Assembly: GCA_049322955.1 (NCBI GenBank)
Contig: JBMOPU010000033.1
Coordinates: 784-64,783, forward strand
Source of the DNA: Patescibacteria group bacterium
GTDB lineage: Bacteria > Patescibacteriota > Microgenomatia > UBA10105 > UBA927
Direction of reading: 5' to 3'
DNA: 64,000 nt
Made by a program: the position numbers and the translations under genes. Below the pieces are notes generated by a model. That model had not been told where the DNA came from and searched no databases. It worked only from the letters and a program-made list of their open reading frames with translations. How positions within the stretch are numbered: the stretch's first letter is position 1; each line of letters opens with the position of its first letter. Shown here piece by piece: positions 4,977 to 56,774 of the stretch.

Positions 4977-7472
4977 TTACGGGGTGGGAGTCGGTGTTTG
5001 GGTGGGGATTGCGGCACATCTGCCGCCTGCCGGTTCGGTGCCGCTTATGAAGTATTCGATTTTTCCGAAGTAACAGGGAAGTGAAACGATGGTGTCGGGC
5101 TTGGGCTGAATTTCATCGGGATGCCCTTTCAACAATTCCACCATAAGATCATGCCAGATAGGAGCGGCTCCCGTGATTCCCGACGTAAGGTAGGGGTTCA
5201 TGGGGGAGTTATCATTATTACCGACCCATACCACGGTGACGTACGACGGCGTGTATCCAACGGTCCAATTATCCCGTTTGTCGTTGGTTGTCCCCGTTTT
5301 GACGGATACGGTATGACCGGGAATCACGAGTGAAGAATTCGGTCCGAACGCCTGCGTACGTGCGGCATTGTCGGAAAGTATGTTTGAGATAATCCAAGCG
5401 ACTTCGGGTTTAACAGCATCGGTCGTTTTGCTCGGCCGATTATCCTTGAGCACTCTTCCGGTATAGTCGGTGACTTGCAGGATAGGTCGCAATTCCTGAA
5501 GCTTCCCCATGTTGGCAAGACTCCCATACACGTTTGCCATCTCAAGCATCGTCACATCACCGCCGCCGAGCGCAAGCGACAACCCGTAACGACCAGGGTC
5601 GTTGCTCCAGGAGCGGATGCCCATGCGTTCGGCTTTTTCAAGCATGGCGGGTACTCCGATTGCGGCGAGGGTTTTGACGGCGGGAATGTTATAGGAATTT
5701 CCCAGCGCATACCGAAGCGGTACCGGACCATGAAATGTGCCGTCATAATTAACCGGCGCATATGGGGGACTTCCCGCATTTTGATAAACGATCGGCGCAT
5801 CATTGATGATTGTGGCGGCAGTCATACCGGTTTCCAATGCCGCCGCATACGGAATCACTTTAATGGAAGAACCCGGTTGTTGGTAGGCGGTCGTCACGTT
5901 AACGTTTCCGTCGCGACCGGTATCAAAGTAATCGCGGCTTCCCACCATCGCAAGAATATCACCGCTTCTGGGGTTGGTAATAAGTGCCGCACCGTTGCCC
6001 ACTTGGAGGGAGGCGAGATTGTCGATGTGCGTTTTGACGATTTCTTCCGCTTTTTCCTGTATGGAAAGATCAAGTGAGGTGATCACCCGTAACCCGCCCC
6101 GCTCAAGCATGCGGGGTCCGTACGTCTTTTCAAGAAGATCCTTTATATACATGACAAAGTGCGGTGCCCTGATGCCGATTCTCGGTTGCGCAAACTGAAT
6201 GGGAGCTTTGAGTGCCTGCTCCTTCTGTTCCTGGGTGATGTAGCCGTCAATTTGCATGCGTTCCAATACTTCTTTCTGACGGACGATGGCTTTTTCCGGA
6301 TGACTGCCGAACGGAGAGTACTCACTGGGCGCGGCGGGAAGTCCCGCCAGAAGCGCCGCCTCGGCAAGCGTCAGCTGGGTCACCGACTTACGGAAGTAAG
6401 TTTGCGCGGCGGATTCGATCCCCCAAGCCGTTCCGCCGTATGGCACCTGGTTTAAGTACATTTCAAAAATCTGATCCTTCGAAAACAACCGCTCGGCCCA
6501 AAATGCGAGAATAATTTCCTTTGTCTTTCGGATTATCGTGACTTCGGGGGTGAGGAGAGCCGATTTGATGAGTTGCTGGGTGATGGTGGAGCCGCCTTGA
6601 ATTTGTTTGTTGATGACGATTTCCGAAGCCGCCCGAAGAATACCGCGCAGTGAAAAGCCCGGATGATAATAAAAGTCGTGATCTTCAATGGCGATCGTCG
6701 CCTGTTTGACCACGAGCGGAATGTCTTCTAATTTGACCGGCGTTCTGTTTTGGTCAACATATATCTCATACAACAGTTGTCCGTTACGGTCCATGATTTT
6801 CGTGCTGACTTCCAGGTCACGTTGGGTTAATAATTGCGGATTGGGGAGCGACTTAAGGAATAGCCACGTGTTATACGGAACAAAAATAAAAATAAGCGTC
6901 AACACGACGCCTCCTGCAAATGACTTTATTTGACTCAACGGTGAGGGAGTATCGAGCACGGTGGCGATATGGGTGCGTTCGATCGGCTTTTCTTTTTGCG
7001 GAGGTGCTTCTTTCCGTTTCGGCAGAGCGATATGCGGCAGTGGGAAGTCGGGCACTCGGAGGTGCGGAGTCCGAAACTTCGGTATCGTAAATCTTGGAAA
7101 CCGGAATTCCCGGATATTGCTTACAAACGACTGCAAGCGGGTATCAAACCAGGGAGAAAATTTATCGAATGAAAGCGTGTTTCGGGTAGGTCGTGCCGTT
7201 TTGCCTTTTGCCCGTTTTTTGTCCCGTTTTTCCGCGATCCAATTCACCGCACTTTTATGTGTTTCCGAGAGTATCCGACCTGCTCCGGCGATAATCTTCA
7301 ACGGGAGAATGATCACAAACCAGACGATCGTGCGAAGGGTGTTTCCGATAGTAATCAGCAAGAGGATACAATACAGAACAAATTGCGCCGCGGGATTCAT
7401 GGTTTGATCGTCGGGGGATGATTGTCTGCGGCGCGCCATAGCGCCGTTTTTTATACCACGTCTTCGGGTCAC
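4977..7472 (-). CDS. class A penicillin-binding protein (PBP1A; transglycosylase plus transpeptidase) with long basic N-terminal extension
   Basis: GT51 motifs EDHDFYYHPG and RGGSTITQQL; transpeptidase SxxK (GSSIK), SxN, KTGT; ~190 aa Arg/Lys-rich extension before the TM anchor. Confidence 0.85.
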   Translation of the reverse strand: MTRRRGIKNGAMARRRQSSPDDQTMNPAAQFVLYCILLLITIGNTLRTIVWFVIILPLKIIAGAGRILSETHKSAVNWIAEKRDKKRAKGKTARPTRNTLSFDKFSPWFDTRLQSFVSNIREFRFPRFTIPKFRTPHLRVPDFPLPHIALPKRKEAPPQKEKPIERTHIATVLDTPSPLSQIKSFAGGVVLTLIFIFVPYNTWLFLKSLPNPQLLTQRDLEVSTKIMDRNGQLLYEIYVDQNRTPVKLEDIPLVVKQATIAIEDHDFYYHPGFSLRGILRAASEIVINKQIQGGSTITQQLIKSALLTPEVTIIRKTKEIILAFWAERLFSKDQIFEMYLNQVPYGGTAWGIESAAQTYFRKSVTQLTLAEAALLAGLPAAPSEYSPFGSHPEKAIVRQKEVLERMQIDGYITQEQKEQALKAPIQFAQPRIGIRAPHFVMYIKDLLEKTYGPRMLERGGLRVITSLDLSIQEKAEEIVKTHIDNLASLQVGNGAALITNPRSGDILAMVGSRDYFDTGRDGNVNVTTAYQQPGSSIKVIPYAAALETGMTAATIINDAPIVYQNAGSPPYAPVNYDGTFHGPVPLRYALGNSYNIPAVKTLAAIGVPAMLEKAERMGIRSWSNDPGRYGLSLALGGGDVTMLEMANVYGSLANMGKLQELRPILQVTDYTGRVLKDNRPSKTTDAVKPEVAWIISNILSDNAARTQAFGPNSSLVIPGHTVSVKTGTTNDKRDNWTVGYTPSYVTVVWVGNNDNSPMNPYLTSGITGAAPIWHDLMVELLKGHPDEIQPKPDTIVSLPCYFGKIEYFISGTEPAGGRCAAIPTQTPTPTP

Positions 7473-7515
7473 TCGACAAGAGGGGATTATCCTGCGGTAC
7501 TTTTGAACCGGTCCG

Positions 7516-9756
7516 TTATTTGACGATTGCCGCTTTTCCTTCGGGGTGCGTGCAGTCGAGACACCATCTCGTAACGCCGTCCCAGGCGATATCGTGTTCC
7601 TGCATTTCTACGTTTTCCGTCTGTCCCGCCGGGGCCAGGTCGCCGGTTGTCTTGTCGATCGGAACAACCTGTCTGCTACTGCCGCTTTTTGCGACGGTAC
7701 CTTTGATAAAGTATTCAAATCGCGTCGGACATCCGAGCGCATCATCGGGTTTATTGGATGCTTCCTGTTCGTTTTGGGAGCCGCCCGCGTTGGGGGGTAA
7801 CAGTCCGTTTGTGGTGCAGACTCTTCCGCCGACGACACCGTCCGGCTGTTTCGGCCAGATATCCGGCTTTCCCTCAAGCACCCTTCGCATGAGTTTATTC
7901 CAGATGGGAGCGGCACCCGTAATACCGGACACCAATGCGCTGTTCATGGGAGAATTGTCATTGTTGCCGACCCACGTGGCGACGAGGAACTGCGGCGTAA
8001 ATCCGATGGTCCAGTTATCCCTGAGGTCATTGGTGGTACCGGTTTTTACCGATACCGCACGATTCGGAATAACAAGCGCCGAGCTGGGACCGAATGCTTC
8101 CTGTCTCGCGTTGTTGTCGAGAAGGATATGGGAGATCAGAAATGCCGTTTCCGGCGAAACGACCCGCTGTCCGGTGAGCAGTAATTGTGACGGGATATCT
8201 TTCCCGACATTCGGATCGGTATATTCTTCAAGCACCTTCCCGTTTTTGTCGACGACTTTGAGAATCGATACCAAATCATGTCTGATGCCTGCATTGGCAA
8301 ATACGGAAAATGCCTCGGCCATATCCGTCATGCGGACCTCTCCTCCCCCCAGGGTGAGGGATAACCCGTATTTTGACGGGTCTGCAAGCGTATCGAGTCC
8401 GAACGCGGATGCCGATGCAACCATGCCCTGAACGGTGTTGAGGTACAACATTTTTACGGCGGGGATGTTCAGCGAGTTGCCGAGCGCAAACCGGAGTTGA
8501 ACGGGACCGCGGAATTTTCCGTCGTAGTTGCGCGGGCAATACAACGGTTGTCCCGGAGTACCGATAAAACAGGTGGGAACATCAAGAAACATCGTGGCGG
8601 GGGTAACGACTTTATTTTCAATGCCGATCGCGTAGTTTATCGGTTTGATTGACGAGCCGGGTTGGCGGAGCGCGGTCGTGACGTTAAATGATCCCGAGGG
8701 GGTCGCGAAATAATCGGTTGAACCGACCATCGCAAGAATTTCGCCGGTTGACGGTTTCGTTATGAGTGCCGCTCCGTTGCCGACACGGATATTTTTCAGC
8801 TTCGCCACTTCCGCGGCAACCGTCGCCTGCGCATAATTCTGCAGATCAAGATCAAGCGTCGTCGTTACTTTCAGTCCGCCGCGTTCGACAAGACTTTCTC
8901 CGTATTTTTCCACCAGTTGTTCTTTGACATACATGACAAAGTGTGCCGCCTGAATGCCTGCTTCCTGTTTGTATTCGATCGGTTCATTGGCCGCTTCTTC
9001 CGCCTGTTCCCGGGTGATATAGCCGTCTTCCACCATGCGATGGAGCACTTCCTTCTGACGTTCCTTGGCAAGTTCGGGATGCGCACCGTACGGCGAATAC
9101 AGCGTCGGTGCCTGCGGAAGTCCCGCAAGAATCGCGGCCTGTGCAAGCGTGACATCCTTTATGGAAACACCGAAGTATTTTTCCGCGGCGGTTTCAATTC
9201 CCCATGCGGTTCCTCCGTACGGCACCGTGTTCAAATACATTTCCAGGATTTTATCCTTGGAATACAAAAGCTCAACGGTCGGGGCAAGAAGAAACTCCTT
9301 GAGTTTTCGTGTGACGGTTCGTTCAGGTGTGAGGAGGGCGGATTTCACCAGTTGTTGGGTGATCGTGGAACCTCCCTGCAGTTTTTTATTGAGCACCGAA
9401 GCGTAGAGTGCTCTGATGATGCCTCCCACGGGATTGATCCCCGCATGGGTATAAAATGTTTTATCTTCTATGGCGATGGTTGCGTTGCGGACAACTTCAG
9501 GAATGTCGGAAAGCGGTACGGGCGATCTGTTTTCACCCACAAAAATATCGAAGAGAAGATTACCGTTCCTGTCATAGACTTTGGTTGCAAGCGGCACATC
9601 ATACCGACCCAGTTTGGCAGGTGAGGGGAGATCCCGTAATATGAACCAATAGAATAGTCCGATAAAGAGTGCCGGGAAAATCCAAAACACAAACTTTTTA
9701 TGTTTGGTAATATATTTTTTACCCGCCGTAAGCGCTTTAAGTCTAGGAAAGGCCAT
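7516..9756 (-). CDS. class A penicillin-binding protein (PBP1A paralog) with Cys-containing C-terminal tail
   Basis: GT51 motifs EDKTFYTHAG and QGGSTITQQL; GSSIKP, KTGTT; C-terminal WCLDCTHPEGK. Confidence 0.85.
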   Translation of the reverse strand: MAFPRLKALTAGKKYITKHKKFVFWIFPALFIGLFYWFILRDLPSPAKLGRYDVPLATKVYDRNGNLLFDIFVGENRSPVPLSDIPEVVRNATIAIEDKTFYTHAGINPVGGIIRALYASVLNKKLQGGSTITQQLVKSALLTPERTVTRKLKEFLLAPTVELLYSKDKILEMYLNTVPYGGTAWGIETAAEKYFGVSIKDVTLAQAAILAGLPQAPTLYSPYGAHPELAKERQKEVLHRMVEDGYITREQAEEAANEPIEYKQEAGIQAAHFVMYVKEQLVEKYGESLVERGGLKVTTTLDLDLQNYAQATVAAEVAKLKNIRVGNGAALITKPSTGEILAMVGSTDYFATPSGSFNVTTALRQPGSSIKPINYAIGIENKVVTPATMFLDVPTCFIGTPGQPLYCPRNYDGKFRGPVQLRFALGNSLNIPAVKMLYLNTVQGMVASASAFGLDTLADPSKYGLSLTLGGGEVRMTDMAEAFSVFANAGIRHDLVSILKVVDKNGKVLEEYTDPNVGKDIPSQLLLTGQRVVSPETAFLISHILLDNNARQEAFGPSSALVIPNRAVSVKTGTTNDLRDNWTIGFTPQFLVATWVGNNDNSPMNSALVSGITGAAPIWNKLMRRVLEGKPDIWPKQPDGVVGGRVCTTNGLLPPNAGGSQNEQEASNKPDDALGCPTRFEYFIKGTVAKSGSSRQVVPIDKTTGDLAPAGQTENVEMQEHDIAWDGVTRWCLDCTHPEGKAAIVK

Positions 9757-21277: not shown

Positions 21278-21353
21278 AACAAGTCCAGTAGAAGTAAGGG
21301 CAAGAGGAACCCCGCGAACTTCGGGGACTGTGCCGCAACGGTGATCCGCCAGC

Positions 21354-23366
21354 TTGACGGAAAGTCCGGAACTCCCCCTTATATATCCCGAGCAGGAGGC
21401 AATTATGGAGAAGCCCTCTCCGACATACGATAATTTTGCGCGCTATAGCATCCGTTCATATAACGACGATACACGGTATAAAGACCGTCTGACGCTTCGC
21501 GGTATTCCCCAGCTTACGGACACGGATGAAGAAGAAAACAAACCCCGATGGCGGGGCGATCACACCTATAATTCCGAAGCGGCATCCTACTCACTCACGC
21601 ATTTTATCGAGCCGGAAGTCAGAAAGGCACACCCCGACTGGACGCACGAAGAAGTACAAAAAGAGGCAACCCAGCGTTTCAAAGAACGGCTTGCACAGGA
21701 TCTTTCATATGAACACAAAGAAAATGCCCATGAAGAATCTGAAGTGCGGTGGGAAAAAATACGGGTGGCGGACGGTTCGTGGGAGCTGGCTACTTCCTAC
21801 GGGGACAAGATGATTACCTTAAACGAACTTTGGGAGCATACCAAAGAGTATGCGGCCTTTGCCGGTAATCCGGACGCGTATAACCGGGATGAACATGCGG
21901 CGCAACTTGCCATGCAGGAACAACTGATATCCGGGAATGCGACGGGATTTGTCAGCGTGCTGTCACACCCTGATGCCGTCCGATATGTCCAGATATGGCA
22001 GAAGTCGGAAGACGGAGGAGTTATCTCCAAGCATGTTGACCTGTTTAAAACGACGGGTACGGACTTCACTCATGAAGAGGGAGCGGATTTTATCCGACAC
22101 CTTGCCCGATTTCATGATGCCGACACGCTTTCATCGGAAGTCTCTTCGTACGCGCATTTTTTTCTGAAGGAAAAAAATATCACCGAATCGGATATCCGTA
22201 CCATCGCCATTGCCCAAACCATGGAACGCGTGCGTGAGGCACCGTCTCCCCATGTGTCCACCGAATATGTACGGATTGTGGGTGATGTGGCGCGAGACAG
22301 CAAAAAAACGTTTATAGAACTCGGGGTGTTTCTCAAAGAGCATATTGATAAAAAAATCGCTCTCGTGAAAAACACCACCGACATTCCGAAAAAAGAAAAA
22401 ACCCGTCGTCTCCCGATTGGTTCCGCAGATCGTCATCCCGTTACCGAGGCAACACGAGCGTTTATTACGGTTCGCCACATCGATACCGCACCAAATGCGC
22501 ATCTGCGAACCGATACAATGCGGTCCACCGATTCGATGAAATCCGTTGCCGCAGAATGGGTGGTGATGCAAACCATGCTTCGGTATAGCCCCGTTATACC
22601 GACGGGCGCCGGTGCCCTTATTTTTTGGTTCACCCGTCCCCTGGAACAGATACAACCGGAAAAAAGAAAACAAATGGGCATCCCTCACGCTGAGGAAAAA
22701 AACACCGTGTTACCCCCCGCACGGGTAAAAGAAAAAAATCCCCGCATATCACTGCGATCACTTTTCCGATTGGTCAGTGAGGCGGGGAAGCGGGCGTTTG
22801 TTCGCTCCGAGAAACAAAAAAATATATCCTCGACGATCGCGGAGAAAACGCCGAAGAAACCTGCGGAACCGGGAAATTCCGAAGTACCCGCCGTACGCCT
22901 GTCGCTTCCCTTTGTGGAACGGCTTCTTCATTTGTACAGAACGCTTATCGTGGAGAAACAGTCAAAACCGCACGGAGTGAAGAAACGGGATACACGAGAC
23001 GCGAACATACCGGAACAGTTGGTTGCCCAGGCCGAAGAAAAAGCAACGCGTATAGTGAAAGATATGGGGATAGCCATCATCGTATGGCTCCTTGTTGAGT
23101 GGGAACGCACGATTGTGTGTGAAAGTCAGGCGTTACCGGCTGAACATGAGGTGGTATTTGCCGATACGCCTGAAATTCCCGACGGGAAAAAACAATCTTC
23201 CTGGCTGTTGTTTGCCATAATCTGGTATCTTTCGGCACTTCGCGAGCACGGCAAACCCGGATCTTTCCAGCAGAAAAAAACCGGGAAAAAGCGGAAAAAA
23301 AAGACCACGGCAAAATCACGCCGTTTTTTGCCGTCATCAGGCATCATATTCACCTATGGTTCGTGA
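21354..23366 (+). CDS. large hypothetical protein (670 aa), charged N-terminal domain, two C-terminal TM segments, poly-Lys tail
   Basis: no recognisable catalytic motif; TM-like IAIIVWLLVEW and SWLLFAIIWYLSAL; tail KKTGKKRKKKTTAKSRR. Confidence 0.4.
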   Translation: MTESPELPLIYPEQEAIMEKPSPTYDNFARYSIRSYNDDTRYKDRLTLRGIPQLTDTDEEENKPRWRGDHTYNSEAASYSLTHFIEPEVRKAHPDWTHEEVQKEATQRFKERLAQDLSYEHKENAHEESEVRWEKIRVADGSWELATSYGDKMITLNELWEHTKEYAAFAGNPDAYNRDEHAAQLAMQEQLISGNATGFVSVLSHPDAVRYVQIWQKSEDGGVISKHVDLFKTTGTDFTHEEGADFIRHLARFHDADTLSSEVSSYAHFFLKEKNITESDIRTIAIAQTMERVREAPSPHVSTEYVRIVGDVARDSKKTFIELGVFLKEHIDKKIALVKNTTDIPKKEKTRRLPIGSADRHPVTEATRAFITVRHIDTAPNAHLRTDTMRSTDSMKSVAAEWVVMQTMLRYSPVIPTGAGALIFWFTRPLEQIQPEKRKQMGIPHAEEKNTVLPPARVKEKNPRISLRSLFRLVSEAGKRAFVRSEKQKNISSTIAEKTPKKPAEPGNSEVPAVRLSLPFVERLLHLYRTLIVEKQSKPHGVKKRDTRDANIPEQLVAQAEEKATRIVKDMGIAIIVWLLVEWERTIVCESQALPAEHEVVFADTPEIPDGKKQSSWLLFAIIWYLSALREHGKPGSFQQKKTGKKRKKKTTAKSRRFLPSSGIIFTYGS

Positions 23367-23823
23367 TAGAATAATACTTATGGATCCTCTGCCCAACACA
23401 TCGCAACGATCTTCCGCAACCCCGGCAATGCCGGCTGGTTCGATGGTCGGTAGTATGGCCAAAGAACAGGTTCCTTTAACCGCCACTCCCGAAACACCTT
23501 CTCTTTCGGAAGTGGGAAAAGAAGTTGACCTTCCTCAGGAAGTACAGCGAGCGGGAGTCACGATACAATCGGATACGATTACCTTGCCGAAAGTCGTCCA
23601 AAACATGGGAGTTTCCGCGGTGGGTCCCTCGGCACCGTCTTCTTCCGCACCCGTCGCTACCGTCGTGTTGCCGCTTACCGATGACCAAATTGCACAAGGT
23701 GTCCATCAAAGTATCATGACTTCATGGCGGTGGTTAGCCGAGTGGTGTGAACGACAACTCAAACAGGCGCATATTTTGCTGACTTCTGCGCACGGGAAAA
23801 TTATACGGACAAAAACGGAATAA
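23356..23823 (+). CDS. hypothetical Pro/Ser/Thr/Ala-rich protein (155 aa)
   Basis: ORF overlaps the upstream gene by 11 nt and ends 4 nt before the ATPase gene (translational coupling); no motif. Confidence 0.35.
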   Translation: MVRDRIILMDPLPNTSQRSSATPAMPAGSMVGSMAKEQVPLTATPETPSLSEVGKEVDLPQEVQRAGVTIQSDTITLPKVVQNMGVSAVGPSAPSSSAPVATVVLPLTDDQIAQGVHQSIMTSWRWLAEWCERQLKQAHILLTSAHGKIIRTKTE

Positions 23824-23827
23824 TCGT

Positions 23828-26176
23828 ATGCCATTAGAATTTGCTGATATCGTCTATCAATTGGAAGTATTGGGGGTGGCGCTTCTTATCGTCACCTTTT
23901 GTCTGATCGGTTTTGCGGTACTAGGATACGTCCTGTTTCTTGCGTGGAAATACCGGGATCGCGAAAAACGTTCGATGGAATATACCCTCATGCAAGTGGC
24001 AACCCCTCGGGATAACGAAATCAAAATCGATGCGGCGGAGCAAATGTTCGCCAGTCTGCATGCGATTCATCACGGAGGATTTTGGTCGTTTTTGAAACCG
24101 CAGGATCATATTTCTTTTGAAATCGTCGCAAAGAGGGAAGACATACGATTTTATATCGCCGCCCCGAAACACTATATCGATCTTGTCGAAAAACAAATAC
24201 ACGGTTCATATCCGGGAGCAGACGTAAAAATCGTGGACGAATACAATATATTTTCCGAAAACGGCAAGGTGGCGTTTGCGGCATTGACGCCCAAAAATTC
24301 CGACTACATGCCGATCCGGGTATTTCGTGATCTTCCCATTGATCCGCTTTCTTCGATAACCAGCGTACTTGCCAAAATGGCCGAAGGAGAGGGAGCCGCA
24401 ATTCAGGTGTTGGTACAGCCTGCGGGGAGCAAGTGGAGTAGCCTTGGAAGATCGTTTATCTCAAAGACGAAAAAGAACGAGGCAAATCCCGAAAAAGCGA
24501 GCTTTAAGATTGATGCGAAAACACTTGAATCGGTGGAACAGAAAGTTTCTAAGCCGGGTTTTAATACCGTCATCCGACTGGTGGTGAGTGCCGCGACAAA
24601 AGAAGCGGCGGACGCGCATCTTGAAAATCTTATCACGTCGTTTCATCAATACACCTCCGATCACAATCACTTTTCCAAGGTGAAACATCCGATGAAAAAG
24701 TTTTTTATGGTCGACTTTATTTACCGATATTTCCCGATGGTGAATCTGCCGTTTTTTAAGCAGTACGGTGTGTTAAACAGCGATGAGCTCGCCACTATTT
24801 ATCATTTTCCGAACAAATCGATTGAAACACCGCATATATTCTGGTTGAACGCGAAGCGGGCGCCGGCTCCAATGCAGATTGCCTCTAGCGGACTGTTTAT
24901 CGGGGTTTCCCGATATCGCGGCGTCGACAGGCCGATATTTATCGGAGATGACGATAGAAGACGGCATCTGTATGTCATCGGAAAAACCGGTACCGGAAAA
25001 TCACAGATGCTCGAAGAGCTGGTTATTCAGGATGTGAAAGCCGGAAAAGGACTTGCCGTCATTGACCCGCACGGGGATCTTATTGACGGAATATTGGCCC
25101 GTATTCCTCCCGAACGTGCCGAGGATGTTATTTATTTTGATCCGTCCGACGGAGAACGTCCGATGGGACTCAATATGTTGGAAGCGCAAACGGAGGAACA
25201 GAAACATTTTGTGGTGACTTCCATCGTGGGACTTATGTACAAACTCTACGATCCGCAGAAAACCGGTATCATCGGTCCGCGGTTTGAACATGCGGTACGT
25301 AATGCCATGCTTACCGTCATGAGCGAACCGGGAACGACGTTTATCGAAGTGGTTCGTATATTAACCGACAGCAACTTCGTGCAGGAATTGCTTCCCAAGG
25401 TCCAGGATCCGATTATCAGAAGATATTGGACCGATCAGATTGCACAAACCGCCGACTTCCATAAATCCGAGGTATTGGACTACATCGTTTCCAAATTCGG
25501 CCGTTTCGTTACGAATAAACTCATGCGGAACATTATCGGGCAATCGGAATCAAGCTTTAACTTCCGCAAGGTGATGGACGAAGGAAAAATCCTGCTTGTT
25601 AATCTCTCCAAAGGAAAACTCGGCGAAGAAAACAGCAACTTTTTGGGACTTATCTTAGTGCCGCGTATTCTTATCGCGGCAATGAGCAGACAGGATATTC
25701 CTGAGGATAAACGGCGGGATTTTTACCTTTATGTGGACGAATTCCAAAATTTCGCCACCCCTGATTTTGCCCAGATTCTTTCCGAAGCCCGGAAATACCG
25801 CTTGAGTCTTACCGTAGCAAACCAATTCATCGGACAAATGGAAGAAGAAGTGAAGAACGCAGTGTTCGGTAACGTCGGTACGCTTATTACATTCCGGGTG
25901 GGGGTAACCGACGCGAATTATCTCCAGCATGAATATCAGCCGACATTTAACGAAATTGATTTAATCAACATCGATAAATTTAATGCATACGTAAAAACCA
26001 TCGTGCACAACGAACCGGTGAAACCGTTTAGCGTGGACTTATCGAAAGATATGTCGGTTGTGAATGCTGAACGAAATAAGGATGTCGCGCAGGCAATCAT
26101 TCAGTTATCCCGGTTGAAATACGGTCAGGCGAGGGAACTTATCGAGGCGGAAATCCAGGAACGCGCCCGTTTGTAA
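23828..26176 (+). CDS. membrane-anchored VirB4/TraC-class (AAA_10/DUF87, HerA-FtsK superfamily) ATPase
   Basis: N-terminal TM helix; ~380 aa pre-ATPase domain; Walker A VIGKTGTGKSQML then IDPHGD; Walker B LYVDEFQNFAT (DE plus aromatic, as in VirB4 DEAW). Confidence 0.55.
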   Translation: MPLEFADIVYQLEVLGVALLIVTFCLIGFAVLGYVLFLAWKYRDREKRSMEYTLMQVATPRDNEIKIDAAEQMFASLHAIHHGGFWSFLKPQDHISFEIVAKREDIRFYIAAPKHYIDLVEKQIHGSYPGADVKIVDEYNIFSENGKVAFAALTPKNSDYMPIRVFRDLPIDPLSSITSVLAKMAEGEGAAIQVLVQPAGSKWSSLGRSFISKTKKNEANPEKASFKIDAKTLESVEQKVSKPGFNTVIRLVVSAATKEAADAHLENLITSFHQYTSDHNHFSKVKHPMKKFFMVDFIYRYFPMVNLPFFKQYGVLNSDELATIYHFPNKSIETPHIFWLNAKRAPAPMQIASSGLFIGVSRYRGVDRPIFIGDDDRRRHLYVIGKTGTGKSQMLEELVIQDVKAGKGLAVIDPHGDLIDGILARIPPERAEDVIYFDPSDGERPMGLNMLEAQTEEQKHFVVTSIVGLMYKLYDPQKTGIIGPRFEHAVRNAMLTVMSEPGTTFIEVVRILTDSNFVQELLPKVQDPIIRRYWTDQIAQTADFHKSEVLDYIVSKFGRFVTNKLMRNIIGQSESSFNFRKVMDEGKILLVNLSKGKLGEENSNFLGLILVPRILIAAMSRQDIPEDKRRDFYLYVDEFQNFATPDFAQILSEARKYRLSLTVANQFIGQMEEEVKNAVFGNVGTLITFRVGVTDANYLQHEYQPTFNEIDLINIDKFNAYVKTIVHNEPVKPFSVDLSKDMSVVNAERNKDVAQAIIQLSRLKYGQARELIEAEIQERARL

Positions 26177-26255
26177 AAAATTCTTCAGGTTACTCTCTTT
26201 ACATTCAAAAAAAAACATGTAATGCTCTGAAGATATTCGGTAAATATATCTATTC

Positions 26256-27653
26256 ATGAGTCAATCTCCCGAGGAAATTTCCTCAGAAAAAAAACATAAC
26301 GTTTTAGTGTATATATTCAACATGTCGGAGGATGTGTGGTCGTTCATTTCCGCCATGTCCGACGCCAACGCAAGAAGTGCGGAGATTGTGGAAAACGGCT
26401 ACCTCGGGGATGTTCGGATGTTTCAGTTTGCGGGTGAGGACAACGAAGTCTTGTATATAACTCCGCAACCGGTAAGCCAACAATTTCTTGATTATTATCA
26501 TTCGCTTTTCCCCAACACAAAGCTGAGCGTGTTAACGACGGCTCAACATAGCGGCGTTATTTGCGAGGATATTTTACACGATCCGTCGATCATGAACGCG
26601 CTTGTCGAGGTGGCGAATTCCTCTCGGAAACTTACGATAACGAGTTATGCGGTAAGTCAGCCGTTTCTCAATCTCGTTCGTGCGCTTCGTGAGAAGGGAC
26701 TGATTATCGTAACTCCCGAAGCACCCGATGAAGAAGACGCTTGGACGGTCAATTTCTTCGGCAGTAAGTCTGGCATCCGGCAACTTGCCCAGCAAAGTAG
26801 TAACGAGGAACCGGATTTTAAAATGGCGGACGGGGTTATTTGTTTCGGTATCGAAGATGCGGCGAAGATTGCGGCGATCCGTTATGTCAAAGAGCAGGGC
26901 GTCGTTATCAAAACAAACAAAGGGCATTCGGGAATGGGGGTCGAAATTTTTCGTCCCGGTGATTTGCCCGATGAATTCCATGCGTGTCAGGCAAAAATAT
27001 TGGCATTGCTTACCAAGGATTCCTACTGGCAAAAGTTCCCTATCATCATCGAAAAACTTATTCAGGTGAGTAATTCGGTGGCGGGCGGAAATCCGAATGT
27101 GGAGTTTAAGATCAATAGAAACGGACACATAGATTTTCTTTATCACTGCGGTGTTTTGGTTACCAAAGAAGGGGCGTTTCACGGCATAGAAATCGGACAC
27201 GATATCATGCCGGAGCGGGTAGCCGCGCGTATAAAAGATACCGGGTATTATATTGCGGAACGGTTTGCCGCGGCGGGATATCGCGGATATTTTGACGTTG
27301 ATTGCGTGGCGGGAAAAAACGGAGAAATCTATGTCGCGGAATCAAACGTACGAAGCACGGGAGGGACCTTCGTTTATACGACAGCGGTCGCGTTATTCGG
27401 CGAAAACTTCATGTATGATACCTATCTTTTCTCCAATAACGGGTATATGATTCCGCATCTTAAGCGGCAAACATTCGCGAGCATGCTCACGAGGCTTTCG
27501 CCGATTTTGTATGATAAAACGACCAAAGAAGGACTTATATTAACGAGTGAAAATCTCCTGCGTATGCAGAAATTCTCATTCATCATTTTTGCAAAAAACA
27601 AAAAACGATCCCTCGAGATTGAAGCCCGCATGGAAGAACTTCTGCAGGCGTAA
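26256..27653 (+). CDS. ATP-grasp fold enzyme with long N-terminal extension
   Basis: VVIKTNKGHSGMGVEIF (Lys/Gly-rich loop) and C-terminal YFDVDCVAGKNGEIYVAESNVRSTGG (E-x-N-x-R motif). Confidence 0.45.
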   Translation: MSQSPEEISSEKKHNVLVYIFNMSEDVWSFISAMSDANARSAEIVENGYLGDVRMFQFAGEDNEVLYITPQPVSQQFLDYYHSLFPNTKLSVLTTAQHSGVICEDILHDPSIMNALVEVANSSRKLTITSYAVSQPFLNLVRALREKGLIIVTPEAPDEEDAWTVNFFGSKSGIRQLAQQSSNEEPDFKMADGVICFGIEDAAKIAAIRYVKEQGVVIKTNKGHSGMGVEIFRPGDLPDEFHACQAKILALLTKDSYWQKFPIIIEKLIQVSNSVAGGNPNVEFKINRNGHIDFLYHCGVLVTKEGAFHGIEIGHDIMPERVAARIKDTGYYIAERFAAAGYRGYFDVDCVAGKNGEIYVAESNVRSTGGTFVYTTAVALFGENFMYDTYLFSNNGYMIPHLKRQTFASMLTRLSPILYDKTTKEGLILTSENLLRMQKFSFIIFAKNKKRSLEIEARMEELLQA

Positions 27654-27812
27654 GTGGCGGCGTCGCCGTTTCTTTTGATACAATCGGATCCATGGGTGTG
27701 TAGCCCAGCGGTACCTATGCTCGCTATCGCAAGCATGAGCTTGCTTGGTCGTTGCGGGCGGGGAGCGCTATCGACATATCAGGTACGCTCATTAATACGT
27801 GCGTACAAAATG

Positions 27813-27884
27813 GGGCCAGTAGCTCAGTGGTAGAGCGCTATCCTTATAAGATAGATGTCCTTGGTCCGATCCCAAGCTGGCCCA
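27813..27884 (+). tRNA. tRNA with anticodon TAT (tRNA-Ile-UAU), CCA not encoded
   Basis: Perfect 7-bp acceptor (GGGCCAG/CTGGCCC), D arm GCTC-AGTGGTA-GAGC, anticodon arm CTATC-CTTATAA-GATAG, T arm CTTGG-TCCGATC-CCAAG; note C at position 55. Confidence 0.7.
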
Positions 27885-27886
27885 CT

Positions 27887-28381
27887 ATGAAAACCGTATC
27901 ACTAGAAGAAATCGAAACTATCGCAAAACAATTGGCTCAGGAAAAAAAACAATGGCATTATCATCTCCTGACTCCGACGTGTCAATTCAATGAAGCAACG
28001 AGTCACGCGTTCGTATTGGAGAATAGTTCTGACCAGGAATATTACGTGTATTATTCCGATGAGCCCGCGATGGCGTTAGGAAAACGCCTGTTGAGTATCC
28101 TGCATGGGGAAGACATCCTTGCCCAAAAAACAACTGACGTGCTCTCTCCCGCAATAGAAAATATCATCCGAAAAGCCCGGGAATTAAACACCGCCGAAAA
28201 ATTCTGGCACCATCATGTCTTTTTTCCAACGTGCAGATATAATCGTCATCCCGGGAAGTGGAATATTACCTTTGAAAATCAGCAGGAAAAGGAAGTGTTG
28301 GAAAGCTTGAGTGATACTAATCCGAAACAAGACCAGAAGGAAATCGAACGACTTTATTATCAGCAGAAAACGCTTACATAA
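27887..28381 (+). CDS. hypothetical protein with duplicated W-H-x-H-x3-P-T-C-x2-N motif
   Basis: ATG 3 nt after the tRNA 3' end; two repeats WHYHLLTPTCQFN and WHHHVFFPTCRYN about 75 aa apart. Confidence 0.35.
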   Translation: MKTVSLEEIETIAKQLAQEKKQWHYHLLTPTCQFNEATSHAFVLENSSDQEYYVYYSDEPAMALGKRLLSILHGEDILAQKTTDVLSPAIENIIRKARELNTAEKFWHHHVFFPTCRYNRHPGKWNITFENQQEKEVLESLSDTNPKQDQKEIERLYYQQKTLT

Positions 28382-54951: not shown

Positions 54952-55779
54952 CTAACCCGGGAGGGGATAATACAGCGTTTCTCCTCCGAACCCCTCTTTG
55001 AATTTGGTGAAGCCTTTCCATTCGGTATTTTTGTTCGCAATCCGTTCATCCCATACGCCGACAAAATCGAAAAAATTCATTTTTCGTTGTCTGGCCAGTT
55101 TGATAGCCTCCCATACCAAAAGCGTCGGGGCAAACAGCTTCTTTCCTCGTCTGGTGGCGCCCGCTATCCAGTAATAGCCGATACGGTTACAAAAGAGCAT
55201 GAGTACGGTTCCCACCGCAGTACCCTTCGAATCGTACGCAAAAAGAATCGCTTTATTTTTTTGGGGGAGAATTGCCCAGAGTTTGGTAATCCCCGTGGTG
55301 GTAATAAATCCCAATAATCCCGCAGACCTGTTTTTCAATCGAACCATTGCCCGGATGTCCTCGGAAATCCCGATACGCACTCCCGCTTTCAGCGCTCGTC
55401 GAACCGCCCGCCGTTTTGCCTCACTCAATTGCGAAAACAATGCGTCTTCGGATCCGGACAGTGGTATGCGTATTGTTTTCGAGGGAATATAGGGATCGGT
55501 ATTGACGGTCATATCTTTCGCCATCGATTTTGTCCATCGGGTCAGATCGGCTTGCCGTACCCGGCTGTCCGGTTCGATAACGAGCGTCCTCACTCCGTAC
55601 GACTGGAGGAGTCGCAGTACTTTTTTGCGATCGGGGAGTTTGATACACCGCTGGATTTTGGCGATCCCGCCGAAAATCCAAAACGGTTTGATAAAAATAA
55701 AACAACCGTCCAACGACTCCACTTTCCATCCCAACGAACGGATATACTTTGCATACAGCGGTGATTGTTGAATTTCCAT
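54952..55779 (-). CDS. FemAB-family aminoacyltransferase (FemX-like, short)
   Basis: C-terminal region KLFAPTLLVWEAIKLARQRKMNFFDFVGV...FTKFKEGF matches the FemX/FemAB core; paralog of the next gene. Confidence 0.5.
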   Translation of the reverse strand: MEIQQSPLYAKYIRSLGWKVESLDGCFIFIKPFWIFGGIAKIQRCIKLPDRKKVLRLLQSYGVRTLVIEPDSRVRQADLTRWTKSMAKDMTVNTDPYIPSKTIRIPLSGSEDALFSQLSEAKRRAVRRALKAGVRIGISEDIRAMVRLKNRSAGLLGFITTTGITKLWAILPQKNKAILFAYDSKGTAVGTVLMLFCNRIGYYWIAGATRRGKKLFAPTLLVWEAIKLARQRKMNFFDFVGVWDERIANKNTEWKGFTKFKEGFGGETLYYPLPG

Positions 55780-55787
55780 AATGCTCC

Positions 55788-56774
55788 TTACGAAGACCGT
55801 TTGAGGAAAAACCAGCGGACGGTATCGATTACCGTATAGAGTCGGTAAAGGAATGGCGATATGACAAGGTCAAATGATCCGGCATAGGTGACGTGGCGCG
55901 GGCGAAACCCCTGTTTAAACCGATGAAAGCCGAACCAAGGGTCATTGGAATCGGGATGTTCTCCGAGTGCACCCCATAAATCAAACGCTTCATACCCTTC
56001 CTTCTTTGCCCAACGGGCAATTTCCCACAGTAAGAGGGTGGGTGCCATCACTTCCCGATGCAGTCTGCTTGATGCGCCGTACGGATAATAAACGGTTTTG
56101 TTCCAGCAAAAAAGCACCCAGGCGGCAAGAACCTCACCCTGATACCGTGCGGTAAAAAGCTTGGCAATCCCCGCTTTGGATAACGTATCCCACATGGTTT
56201 GGTGGTAAGCGGAGTTGTGTGCATAAAATCCCTGGCGGGATGTCGTCTCCGCGCTGAGTCGCAGATACTCGTGAAACGCTTCGGGTGATGAATCCTGGGT
56301 TACCGTAACGCCGTGTTTTTGTGCAACCTTCAGGTTATACCGCGTTTTGGGGTGCATTGCGGCAAGGAGCTCGCTTTCCGTTTTCGTTAAGTCCAATATG
56401 AATGAGTGAGGAGTAAAAAGGGGATGATGGGACGGAACCAATAATGGAGCATCGGAGGGAGGGACGAACGCGTGTTTTTCGACGTCGGGTTCAAGCTGGA
56501 TATAGATCGCTTTTTTTCCCTTCCCGAGTTTAGTGAGCGTTGCTAGCATTGTCGACGTTATAGCGGGTCCCTTCGGAAAATATCCGACGGTAAAGGGAAG
56601 ATACGGCAATTTATGAAAGGTGAGTTGCCAATTGTGTATGCGCGTTACATCGATGCCCATACGTTCACGGAAGACACCCCATTGCCAGCTTTGTAGCGGG
56701 TGGGTAACCCGTGCATTCCATGCGGTGATTTCCGTAGAAAGCAGATCTGCGGGGGGCTTTTTGGCTATCGGCAT
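55788..56774 (-). CDS. FemAB-family peptidoglycan aminoacyltransferase (FemX-like)
   Basis: YYPYGASSR...APTLLLWEIARWAKKEGYEAFDLWGA...FHRFKQGF aligns with W. viridescens FemX (YMYAGS...APYAVQSEMIQWALD..LYDLGG...FKHVF). Confidence 0.6.
   Translation of the reverse strand: MPIAKKPPADLLSTEITAWNARVTHPLQSWQWGVFRERMGIDVTRIHNWQLTFHKLPYLPFTVGYFPKGPAITSTMLATLTKLGKGKKAIYIQLEPDVEKHAFVPPSDAPLLVPSHHPLFTPHSFILDLTKTESELLAAMHPKTRYNLKVAQKHGVTVTQDSSPEAFHEYLRLSAETTSRQGFYAHNSAYHQTMWDTLSKAGIAKLFTARYQGEVLAAWVLFCWNKTVYYPYGASSRLHREVMAPTLLLWEIARWAKKEGYEAFDLWGALGEHPDSNDPWFGFHRFKQGFRPRHVTYAGSFDLVISPFLYRLYTVIDTVRWFFLKRSS

Follow-up and report, generated by a model that had tools for sequence, protein, structure and literature searches.

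A membrane-anchored P-loop ATPase of 782 amino acids (aa) was analysed in a 64,000-nucleotide (nt) stretch of DNA from a Patescibacteria group bacterium (assembly GCA_049322955.1, contig JBMOPU010000033.1, positions 784 to 64,783; hereafter the window). By sequence comparison, its motor groups with the type IV coupling proteins (T4CPs) TrwB, TraD and VirD4. The reading that we favour, with about even confidence, is that the ATPase belongs to a chromosomal, vertically inherited cluster built of three layers, in which an ancient core of motor and small partner likely serves a type IV secretion system (T4SS) in trans. The window is a housekeeping stretch of a Gottesmanbacteria-like Patescibacterial chromosome, and the cluster in it has the following features.

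21281..21394, + strand: cobalamin riboswitch aptamer (Rfam RF00174), between the adenosyltransferase stop and the Shine–Dalgarno sequence of the 653-aa gene
21394..21399, + strand: Shine–Dalgarno sequence AGGAGG, abutting the 3' end of the aptamer, 5 nt from ATG 21405
21405..23366, + strand: 653-aa gene (p652), starting at ATG 21405 behind AGGAGG
23356..23823, + strand: 155-aa small partner (p155), as called from the open reading frame (ORF)
23828..26176, + strand: 782-aa membrane-anchored P-loop ATPase, T4CP lineage with a VirB4-like N-terminal domain
26256..27653, + strand: 465-aa ATP-grasp ligase, with a pre-ATP-grasp domain (Pfam)
27652..27671, + strand: terminator-like hairpin of 8 pairs followed by a T-run, at the ATP-grasp stop (consensus match only)

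Architecture, family and distribution of the ATPase

The ATPase consists, in order, of a single transmembrane (TM) helix, a DUF8128 domain of ~300 aa and a Walker A/B motor. An earlier sequence-only reading of this DNA had named a TM helix, a Walker A motif, IDPHGD and VDEFQNF, all of which were located as follows.

23867..23947, + strand: N-terminal TM helix, aa 14–40 (hydropathy; AlphaFold2 helix 8–41)
23957..24862, + strand: DUF8128 domain, aa 44–345, with the fold of the VirB4/TrwK N-terminal domain
24980..25003, + strand: Walker A GKTGTGKS, aa 385–392; G385, G390 and K391 invariant in 63 homologues
25061..25078, + strand: IDPHGD, aa 412–417, aligning with VDPNGD of TrwB
25724..25753, + strand: Walker B YLYVDEFQNF, aa 633–642; D637 and E638 invariant in 63 homologues

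The catalytic motifs are intact. An N-out/C-in topology, with the bulk of the ATPase in the cytoplasm, is predicted from the positive-inside rule because KYRDREKR follows the TM helix. The architecture is that of a T4CP, with an N-terminal anchor and a cytoplasmic nucleotide-binding domain carrying a helical (all-alpha) insertion. The DUF8128 domain was modelled alone with a pLDDT of 95; it has the fold of the VirB4 N-domain and is not a barrel.

The sequence-only reading had taken the protein for a member of the VirB4/TraC (AAA_10) class. The VirB4 layout is structurally right, as seen in the fold of the N-domain; membership of the class is wrong, and the sequence models point to T4CPs instead. 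Neither AAA_10 (PF12846) nor CagE_TrbE_VirB (PF03135) matched the ATPase at E ≤ 0.1 in Pfam, and TIGR00929 (VirB4_CagE) scored 24.6 bits against a cutoff of 643. No VirB4 chain was returned by a PDB profile search even at E ≤ 10, and hhalign against the genuine AAA_10 VirB4 of plasmid pBM69 gave a probability of 5.5%. The canonical Patescibacterial VirB4 is a different gene, which tends to lie near dnaA (PMC12102498). The Pfam cutoffs were exceeded by TrwB_AAD_bind (28.3 versus 20.5), T4SS-DNA_transf (25.9 versus 20.1) and TraG-D_C (26.3 versus 22), all of these T4CP matches being partial and weak, and the generic DUF87 core model was also passed (25.9 versus 23.2 bits). The best NCBIfam models were of the TraD/VirD4 type (53.4 and 37.6 bits, far below the equivalog cutoffs), and the best PDB sequence matches were TrwB and DotL. 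Structure evidence on the family is more mixed than the sequence evidence. The protein is not of the HerA type: model NF040819 reached only 13.9 bits against a cutoff of 970, and the N-domain is VirB4-like with no HAS-barrel. The combination of the FtsK_SpoIIIE motor model with a gamma winged-helix domain, by which FtsK/SpoIIIE would be recognized, was not found in the ATPase. The family is catalogued by Pfam as DUF8128 and by NCBI as 'type IV secretion system DNA-binding domain-containing protein', and the NCBI and JGI names of close homologues agree with the T4CP label. A defence-system function was considered and rejected; PADLOC gave only weak motor-domain matches (mad8, HerA) and the housekeeping context opposes it.

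Full-length homologues were found on Bacillus, Streptomyces, Clostridium and haloarchaeal plasmids and in large Bacillus phages, with 20–30% identity to the window ATPase. Alignment of the window family with the DUF87 protein of pBM69 using hhalign gave a probability of 100% (E 4e-54, 657 columns) and covered both domains. On pBM69 (BMMGA3_RS16220) and on a B. subtilis plasmid the homologue lies directly before a Replic_Relax gene, in the company of TcpC and a separate 860-aa AAA_10 VirB4; the same arrangement on pGIAK1 has been read as relaxase, VirD4 and VirB4 (PMC3756968). Because the plasmid homologues match both domains and co-occur with a true VirB4, the ATPase is best placed in a monoderm coupling-protein lineage with a VirB4-like N-domain. 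Its pBM69 orthologue occupies the T4CP slot beside a relaxase-like gene.

The phages with a full-length homologue are CP-51, Shanette, JL, phage G (gp156), 0305phi8-36 and SP-10. In CP-51 (L106, 66550–72035) the homologue is flanked by a partition protein of the actin-like ParM/Alp type and by a Replic_Relax protein, which gives the impression of a plasmid-style module within the genome of a lytic phage.

These relatives raise the question of whether the cluster is left over from an integrated conjugative element, a plasmid or a prophage module. The full-length homologues on plasmids and in Bacillus phages, a match of PHROG 5156 to the ATPase (E 3e-93) and a slightly lower GC content at 24–28 kb (0.46 versus ~0.50) would be in keeping with such an origin, which we nevertheless regard as scarcely credible. 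No relaxase, integrase, repeats or other T4SS genes accompany the ATPase, the same housekeeping context recurs across genera and classes, and the identity to the plasmid and phage proteins is only 20–30%. The ratio of nonsynonymous to synonymous substitution rates (dN/dS) is 0.008, and vertical divergence is in step with that of the neighbouring genes.

More than 7,900 homologues of the ATPase were returned by a word-indexed search, the best 120 of which were all at least 77% identical and came from Patescibacteria. An exhaustive search of representatives gave 23,884 clusters (50% identity) at E ≤ 1e-3 and 6,426 at E < 1e-30. Selection was estimated against relative L001, which has ~80–84% DNA identity to the window. 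The ATPase is 98.6% identical to that of L001 in protein sequence at ~84% DNA identity, and its dN/dS is the lowest of 13 neighbouring genes, comparable to those of GroEL and ribonucleotide reductase (RNR).

Orphan genes of this kind have been counted before. VirD4-type T4CP homologues numbered 5,713, in 2,918 of 3,035 Patescibacteria genomes, and virB4 was nearby for only 148 of the 5,713; the homologue of S. epibionticum was non-essential and, according to the authors, may be 'exapted for other functions' (Quinonero-Coronel et al., 2025; PMC12102498). The essential T4SS cluster of Southlakia epibionticum has been described as being without a recognizable coupling protein (Wang et al., 2023).

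Two ATPase paralogues in tandem or close together were seen in loci L042, L049, L056 and L063, which fits the published figure of about two T4CP homologues per genome. Database proteins P0264, P0282–P0287, P0292 and similar ones (~1,300–1,510 aa) share only the C-terminal motor domain, at 50–53% identity. In P0264-type proteins a region of ~980 aa precedes the motor, and P0264, the one scanned, shows a sub-cutoff ANAPC3/TPR-like match. Apart from this match and generic P-loop-family matches in P0235, no Pfam domain was found in the extensions of the long homologues (1,000–2,000 aa).

Gene order and the upstream partner

The four + strand ORFs described earlier (21354–23366, 23356–23823, 23828–26176 and 26256–27653) were confirmed, as were their junctions, an 11-nt overlap, a 4-nt gap and a 79-nt gap. 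The start of the first was revised. This ORF had been read as 670 aa from TTG 21354; its true start is almost certainly ATG 21405, giving a product of 653 aa that is identical to database protein P0121, because 21354–21394 belongs to the riboswitch aptamer and AGGAGG sits before ATG 21405. Between the window and L001, dN/dS was 0.173 for the 653-aa gene, 0.127 for the 155-aa gene, 0.008 for the ATPase and 0.018 for the ATP-grasp gene. All four ORFs are real genes under purifying selection.

The four genes probably form one operon, and their proposed co-transcription is supported by an order that is syntenic across Gottesmanbacteria-like genomes and by the hairpin scan. Past the start of the 155-aa gene, the sole non-coding terminator-like hairpin on the + strand is that after the ATP-grasp stop, a probable operon end to judge from its sequence. 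A weaker + strand match lies within the ATP-grasp gene (27268–27286), and two terminator-like + strand matches lie inside the 653-aa gene (22597–22617 and 23307–23324). In a sigma-70 promoter scan matches were rarer than in shuffled sequence and none was found upstream of the operon.

The neighbourhood was surveyed in 83 related loci from Microgenomates, Dojkabacteria, WWE3, Berkelbacteria, Saccharibacteria-like and Parcubacteria genomes. The orphan status of the ATPase held up: it is without T4SS parts in the window, where Pfam scans of the cluster and 20 further large ORFs gave none, and in more than 80 related loci. No VirB3-, VirB6- or VirB8-type component was found in the scanned window ORFs or in the recurrent neighbour families of the 83 loci, and no linkage to a relaxase or T4SS was found in the 64-kb window or the related Patescibacterial loci. 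Neither relaxase nor integrase was found among the neighbours of the ATPase, which are housekeeping genes.

Three partners had been proposed for the ATPase. Of these, only the small upstream protein recurs across classes; the 653-aa and ATP-grasp genes are lineage-specific. The four-gene order is kept in Gottesmanbacteria-like genomes, and elsewhere only the two-gene core is conserved.

In 62 of 81 loci, a small ORF on the strand of the ATPase ends fewer than 200 nt before the ATPase gene. Grouping of 42 such ORFs gave four lineage-specific families, each with a low-complexity N-terminal part and a short conserved C-terminal helix. The 155-aa protein of the window, which has no Pfam match, shows this pattern, with a Pro/Ser/Thr-rich N-terminal part and the conserved helix LPLTDDQIAQG..SWRWLAEWC.RQLKQ at aa 105–137; the motif of its Microgenomates family, found in 12 Microgenomates-type loci, is LP(L/I)TDDQIAQGL..S..SWRWLAEWC.R.LKQ. 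Homology was not detectable between most of the families, only the two from Microgenomates being related. A shared origin of the small partners was considered and not upheld: the Parcubacteria-, Saccharibacteria- and f24-type families are without similarity to one another and none has a Pfam domain.

The hidden Markov model (HMM) of the f24 family matches the N-terminus of 10 ATPase representatives that lack the TM helix (E 6e-14 to 1e-4). Since an f24-type partner is naturally fused to the ATPase (a Rosetta-stone relationship), a physical partnership in the cytoplasm is suggested. The fused proteins are P0241, P0262, P0271, P0280, P0308, P0313, P0326–P0328 and P0343, and as they have no TM helix they are probably soluble.

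A further family without a Pfam match (f1, ~200 aa) was observed one or two gene slots downstream of the ATPase, and on its strand, in ~17 Parcubacteria-type loci (e.g. L061, 10385–11026). It is often followed by DnaX and may be a second lineage-specific partner.

The last gene was correctly described as an ATP-grasp enzyme, Pfam PreAtp-grasp (PF18604) scoring 30.5 bits against a cutoff of 27.5; similarity in the ATP-grasp core was limited to weak, partial NCBIfam matches to BesA and LdmS. A homologue search returned 779 proteins. The gene directly follows the ATPase in L001–L003 and L005, and does so in all four of the divergent Gottesmanbacteria-like loci that were reached from the ATP-grasp side (57–60% identity). 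It is missing from this position in L004 and in every other class surveyed.

The sequence-only reading had proposed a self-contained minimal translocation apparatus, composed of a VirB4-class motor, the 653-aa protein as a membrane component and the ATP-grasp protein as a modifying enzyme. We consider this very doubtful. The operon-like packing, the retention of the four-gene order where the ATP-grasp protein is only 57–60% identical and the VirB4-like fold of the N-domain argue for it. It is largely contradicted by the synteny data, as the 653-aa and ATP-grasp genes are absent beside the ATPase in all other classes, in L004 (ATP-grasp) and in L102 (653-aa). Moreover, the motor belongs with the T4CPs, which are receptors and cannot do without a separate channel. 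The two C-terminal TM helices ascribed to the 653-aa protein are unconvincing as membrane spans, being hydrophobic stretches of only 13–15 residues with a 19-residue hydropathy mean of at most 1.58. Since this protein has two short hydrophobic stretches and no polytopic membrane domain, nothing in the cluster appears able to form a channel, which makes a self-contained apparatus unlikely.

The cobalamin riboswitch and the 653-aa gene

The beginning of the cluster had been taken for coding sequence, so that the B12 riboswitch heading it was missed. RF00174 scored 24.1 bits there (gathering score 31.5), with an E value of 0.008 over 12 kb and 1.3e-4 over 191 nt; the full model was matched, and the core and B12 box were aligned. 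The same intergenic position matches clan CL00101 in seven relatives (L001, L004, L005 and L102–L105), above the gathering score in three (L102, 32.1 versus 31.5; L005, 37.5 versus 36.5; L105, 38.8 versus 36.5) and just below it in L104 (36.0) and L004 (34.2). Covariation was assessed for two helices in eight sequences. Helix 1 showed compensatory changes at three of five pairs, with 98.8% of cells pairing, and none of 500 shuffles reached the observed value. In six relatives a hairpin followed by a T-run lies just ahead of the start codon of the first gene.

A covariance model built from the window-type riboswitches was used to find further copies. L019 has two, L006 and L012 have them ahead of gene arrays, and L018 and L023 carry them on the minus strand, where they precede a Cys-rich protein of ~430–480 aa. 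The arrays of L006 and L012, and that of L019, comprise DUF4430 and/or DUF6580 with CobAT and then the small partner and the ATPase, all on the same strand. The slot after the riboswitch is filled in L102, L006 and L012 by DUF4430 proteins, DUF6580 membrane proteins and an alpha/alpha-toroid protein; DUF4430 is a domain of B12 binders. About half of the Microgenomates-type loci have class II RNR and CobAT genes on the upstream side. Because of the conserved riboswitch directly upstream and this B12-gene context, the 653-aa gene is a probable B12-regulated gene of a B12-utilization locus.

Extension of B12 regulation to the ATPase is allowed by the tight packing of the genes and by the arrays of L006, L012 and L019, to go by their layout. 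The ATPase does not seem to be an obligate member of the B12 regulon, since in L102, L018 and L023 the B12-regulated gene either lies on the minus strand or is parted from the ATPase by a minus-strand gene. In a stronger version, the riboswitch would govern all of the operon, and the products of its first three genes would jointly acquire cobalamin, for example by moving a B12 carrier protein across or into the membrane. We judge this improbable. In its favour, the riboswitch immediately precedes the genes, these overlap or abut one another, and no terminator-like hairpin was found from the start of the 155-aa gene to the ATPase stop. The hairpin and T-run in six relatives, the upstream class II RNR and CobAT and the same-strand arrays that a riboswitch heads and the small partner and ATPase end (L006, L012 and L019, with a ~470-aa Cys-rich protein in L012 and L019) also speak for it. 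However, the strand arrangement in L102, L018 and L023 is at odds with joint control, no B12 genes accompany the ATPase in the Parcubacteria, Dojkabacteria, WWE3 and Saccharibacteria-like loci, and the ATPase is far more conserved than the 653-aa gene. We know of no B12 uptake system with a motor of the FtsK/HerA superfamily.

The Cys-rich proteins have a zinc-ribbon-like C-terminal end and no Pfam match (L018, 5572–6870, minus strand; L023, 5962–7404, minus strand; L012, 6144–7535; L019, 5753–7201). Those of L018, L019 and L023 stand behind a B12 riboswitch and are a candidate further B12-regulon family. In L105 (1–242) the class II RNR contains an intein with a LAGLIDADG endonuclease (1,190-aa product).

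The 653-aa protein was rightly said to have no recognizable domain; neither Pfam nor PDB gave a match, including for all 30 aligned family members. The homologue search returned only 77 proteins, none with a Pfam domain, and the family HMM matches only L001–L005 and L103–L105. The protein is 63% identical in the relative whose ATPase is 98.6% identical. Its conserved parts are as follows.

21549–22220, + strand: conserved N-domain, aa ~45–270, with WRGDH, HEES and SHPD, followed by a variable middle
aa 600–616: conserved hydrophobic helix WLLFAIIWYLSALREHG of the C-terminal part
aa 624–640: basic tail, with GIIFTYGS at the end of the protein

A metal or ligand site is suggested in the N-domain by its many invariant His, Asp and Glu residues (WRGDH, HEES, H144, SHPD, D211 and D219). 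The last 45 aa of the family have a median net charge of +7, with at least +5 in 53 of the 77 homologues. Substrates of VirB/D4 systems carry positively charged C-terminal signals, and the basic tail resembles these by analogy, which is a lead only. Two possible relationships of the protein were tried and discarded: a diverged Replic_Relax nickase (hhalign probability below 1%) and the 430–480-aa Cys-rich B12-regulated proteins (f116, f330 and f376), to which no link was detectable. An S-P/H-P-G/D strand motif common to the 653-aa and Cys-rich proteins is an eye-level lead.

Elsewhere in the window, NrdR, class II RNR and cob(I)alamin adenosyltransferase genes lie upstream of the cluster, and tRNA-Ile, NUDIX, TsaD, VanW and GroES/EL genes lie downstream; penicillin-binding proteins (PBPs), MetRS, UvrD-type helicases and FemAB-like proteins are also encoded. 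The tRNA-Ile(TAT) is at 27813–27885, after the operon terminator. An ORF of 209 aa called at 27752 crosses it, and the plausible real gene is a 164-aa ORF from ATG 27887 (27887–28381), with two internal W-H-x-H..P-x-C repeats and no Pfam match. In L001–L003 the tRNA-Ile is kept and the 164-aa gene is not present. Two adjacent class A PBP genes and two adjacent FemAB-family genes (4977–9756 and 54952–56774, both on the minus strand) amount to duplicated cell-wall machinery in a small genome.

Proposed role and comparison with known systems

The ancient core would comprise two genes, those of the ATPase and the small upstream protein. By homology to TrwB, VirD4 and VirB4, the ATPase would act as a hexamer on the cytoplasmic face of the membrane and would use ATP to pass DNA or protein, as a polymer substrate, to a channel whose genes lie elsewhere. 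The Patescibacterial T4SS is the likeliest such channel; it has been published as lying near dnaA and, in the strain studied, as having no recognizable coupling protein in its gene cluster. The small protein is a likely adaptor or regulator. In structures of the R388 system the VirB4 N-domain binds the tails of VirB3 and VirB8, and the DUF8128 domain is for this reason a likely docking surface for the small partner or the channel. The 653-aa gene, which is lineage-specific and evolves fast, occupies a slot that holds B12-binding or B12-transport genes in relatives, and would probably act in B12 acquisition and not with the motor; alternatively its product may be a cargo, given the basic C-terminal tail. 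The ATP-grasp ligase would be an addition specific to Gottesmanbacteria. A coupling ATPase for a T4SS encoded elsewhere is the most economical reading.

Several observations weigh against it. No T4SS gene lies near any of the loci, so that the link to a T4SS draws on family membership and published counts. In S. epibionticum the T4CP homologue, which may be of another type than DUF8128, is non-essential in a strain whose T4SS is essential (PMC12102498). Conservation of GroEL grade is unusual for a T4SS accessory protein. The small partners of different classes are without detectable homology, and what looks like one conserved partner may be several unrelated proteins. The four genes abut or overlap with no intervening terminator, which makes a joint function of all four possible in this lineage, and the window riboswitch scores below its Rfam gathering score. 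As to essentiality, VirD4 is dispensable for pilus biogenesis in Agrobacterium, which would reconcile an essential T4SS with a non-essential T4CP.

The extreme purifying selection and near-universal distribution of the ATPase would also fit an exapted housekeeping DNA translocase, a T4CP-derived motor that has left the T4SS and pumps DNA in a core process, for example uptake to salvage nucleotides or, at division, the segregation of chromosomes and resolution of dimers. This is possible, though we hold it to be less probable than service to a T4SS. Genes of DNA metabolism recur beside the ATPase: NrdR–RNR in at least 13 loci, a Xer-type recombinase with DivIC/FtsB in ~17, DnaX in ~15, and GyrB, ComM-like and RuvX genes in others. 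The pairing of phage and plasmid relatives with the nickase-like Replic_Relax protein points to a DNA substrate. Some relatives, ComB4 and Ced, import DNA, and the NCBIfam model CedD matched weakly (E 2.7e-4). The published remark on exaptation is in line with such a role (PMC12102498). On the other side, neighbourhood is weak evidence in tiny genomes dense with housekeeping genes, and the Xer gene is encoded on the other strand. A separate ftsK is annotated in TM7x (PMC10768705), and S. epibionticum in co-culture can dispense with either comEC or the T4CP homologue. Replacement of FtsK was addressed by a tblastn search of 1.22 Mb of related loci with the E. coli FtsK motor, which gave no match; with about one expected, the result is uninformative.

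A bolder version, which we think unlikely, is that a T4CP with a VirB4-type docking domain has turned into a conjugation-independent translocation motor throughout the phylum, with lineage-specific small adaptors, and that in Gottesmanbacteria it sits in a B12-riboswitch operon with the fast-evolving 653-aa protein, which has a basic C-terminal tail, as a dedicated cargo or receptor. If true, a secretion-type motor would be linked to the scavenging of a vitamin from the host.

A large part of bacterial diversity belongs to the Patescibacteria, which live at the expense of other cells. In the single strain tested the T4SS is essential, and orphan coupling-protein homologues are near-universal in the group. 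If the ATPase merely serves a T4SS in trans, as in the reading that we favour, the finding is an ordinary one. Experimental handles are offered by the VirB4-type N-domain, the GroEL-like conservation, the small partner and the orthology to the coupling-protein slot of Bacillus plasmids and phages. A T4CP-like motor that keeps a VirB4-type N-domain bears on the divergence of VirB4 and VirD4. The riboswitch marks the 653-aa family as a candidate new player in B12 acquisition, in an organism that probably depends on B12, given its class II RNR and the very limited biosynthetic capacity of Patescibacteria in general.

Among known systems, TrwB of R388, VirD4 and DotL have no VirB4-like domain of 300 aa between anchor and motor, whereas the window ATPase has one. 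Two TM helices are usual in classical T4CPs, whose genes accompany those of a relaxase or T4SS; the window ATPase has one TM helix and neither companion. From VirB4, TrwK and TraC it differs in failing their sequence models and in not being encoded with VirB3, VirB6 or VirB8. The Bacillaceae T4CP-slot proteins of pBM69 and the B. subtilis FUA2233 plasmid (compare pGIAK1_2) and gp91 of phage CP-51 are of similar size and homologous in both domains. They stand beside a Replic_Relax nickase-like gene, the plasmid copies also with TcpC and an AAA_10 VirB4, and belong to mobile-element modules for transfer or replication. The window ATPase, in contrast, is chromosomal, has no Replic_Relax, TcpC or VirB4 beside it and shares only 20–25% identity with the pBM69-type proteins.

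Known adaptors and regulators of T4CPs act in the pairs CagZ–Cagbeta, TrwA–TrwB, TraM–TraD and IcmS/W–DotL. The small partner in the window has no sequence similarity to CagZ, TrwA, TraM or IcmS/W, and the likeness is one of analogy only. Ligases of the PGM1/BesA/LdmS type share with the 465-aa protein a pre-ATP-grasp domain and an ATP-grasp core; against the BesA and LdmS equivalog models it scores 27–30 bits (cutoffs 475–750). Cobalamin riboswitches of RF00174 and RF01689 resemble the window RNA in the core GGAAC..GAA..CGGGGACUG.GCCGCAACGGU, the B12-box-like AGUCCGGAACUCCCC and the setting in a B12-utilization locus, and a terminator is present in relatives. The window RNA differs in being short and sub-threshold, and the gene downstream of it belongs to no known B12-regulon family.

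The closest published counterparts are the orphan T4CP homologues of Patescibacteria, which like the window ATPase are chromosomal, lie away from virB4, have no relaxase and are near-universal (PMC12102498). That account gives counts only, and the VirB4-like N-domain, the small partner, the fusions, the degree of conservation and the B12-riboswitch context do not figure in it. The gene class is already published; its architecture, its partner and its B12-riboswitch leader are new details.

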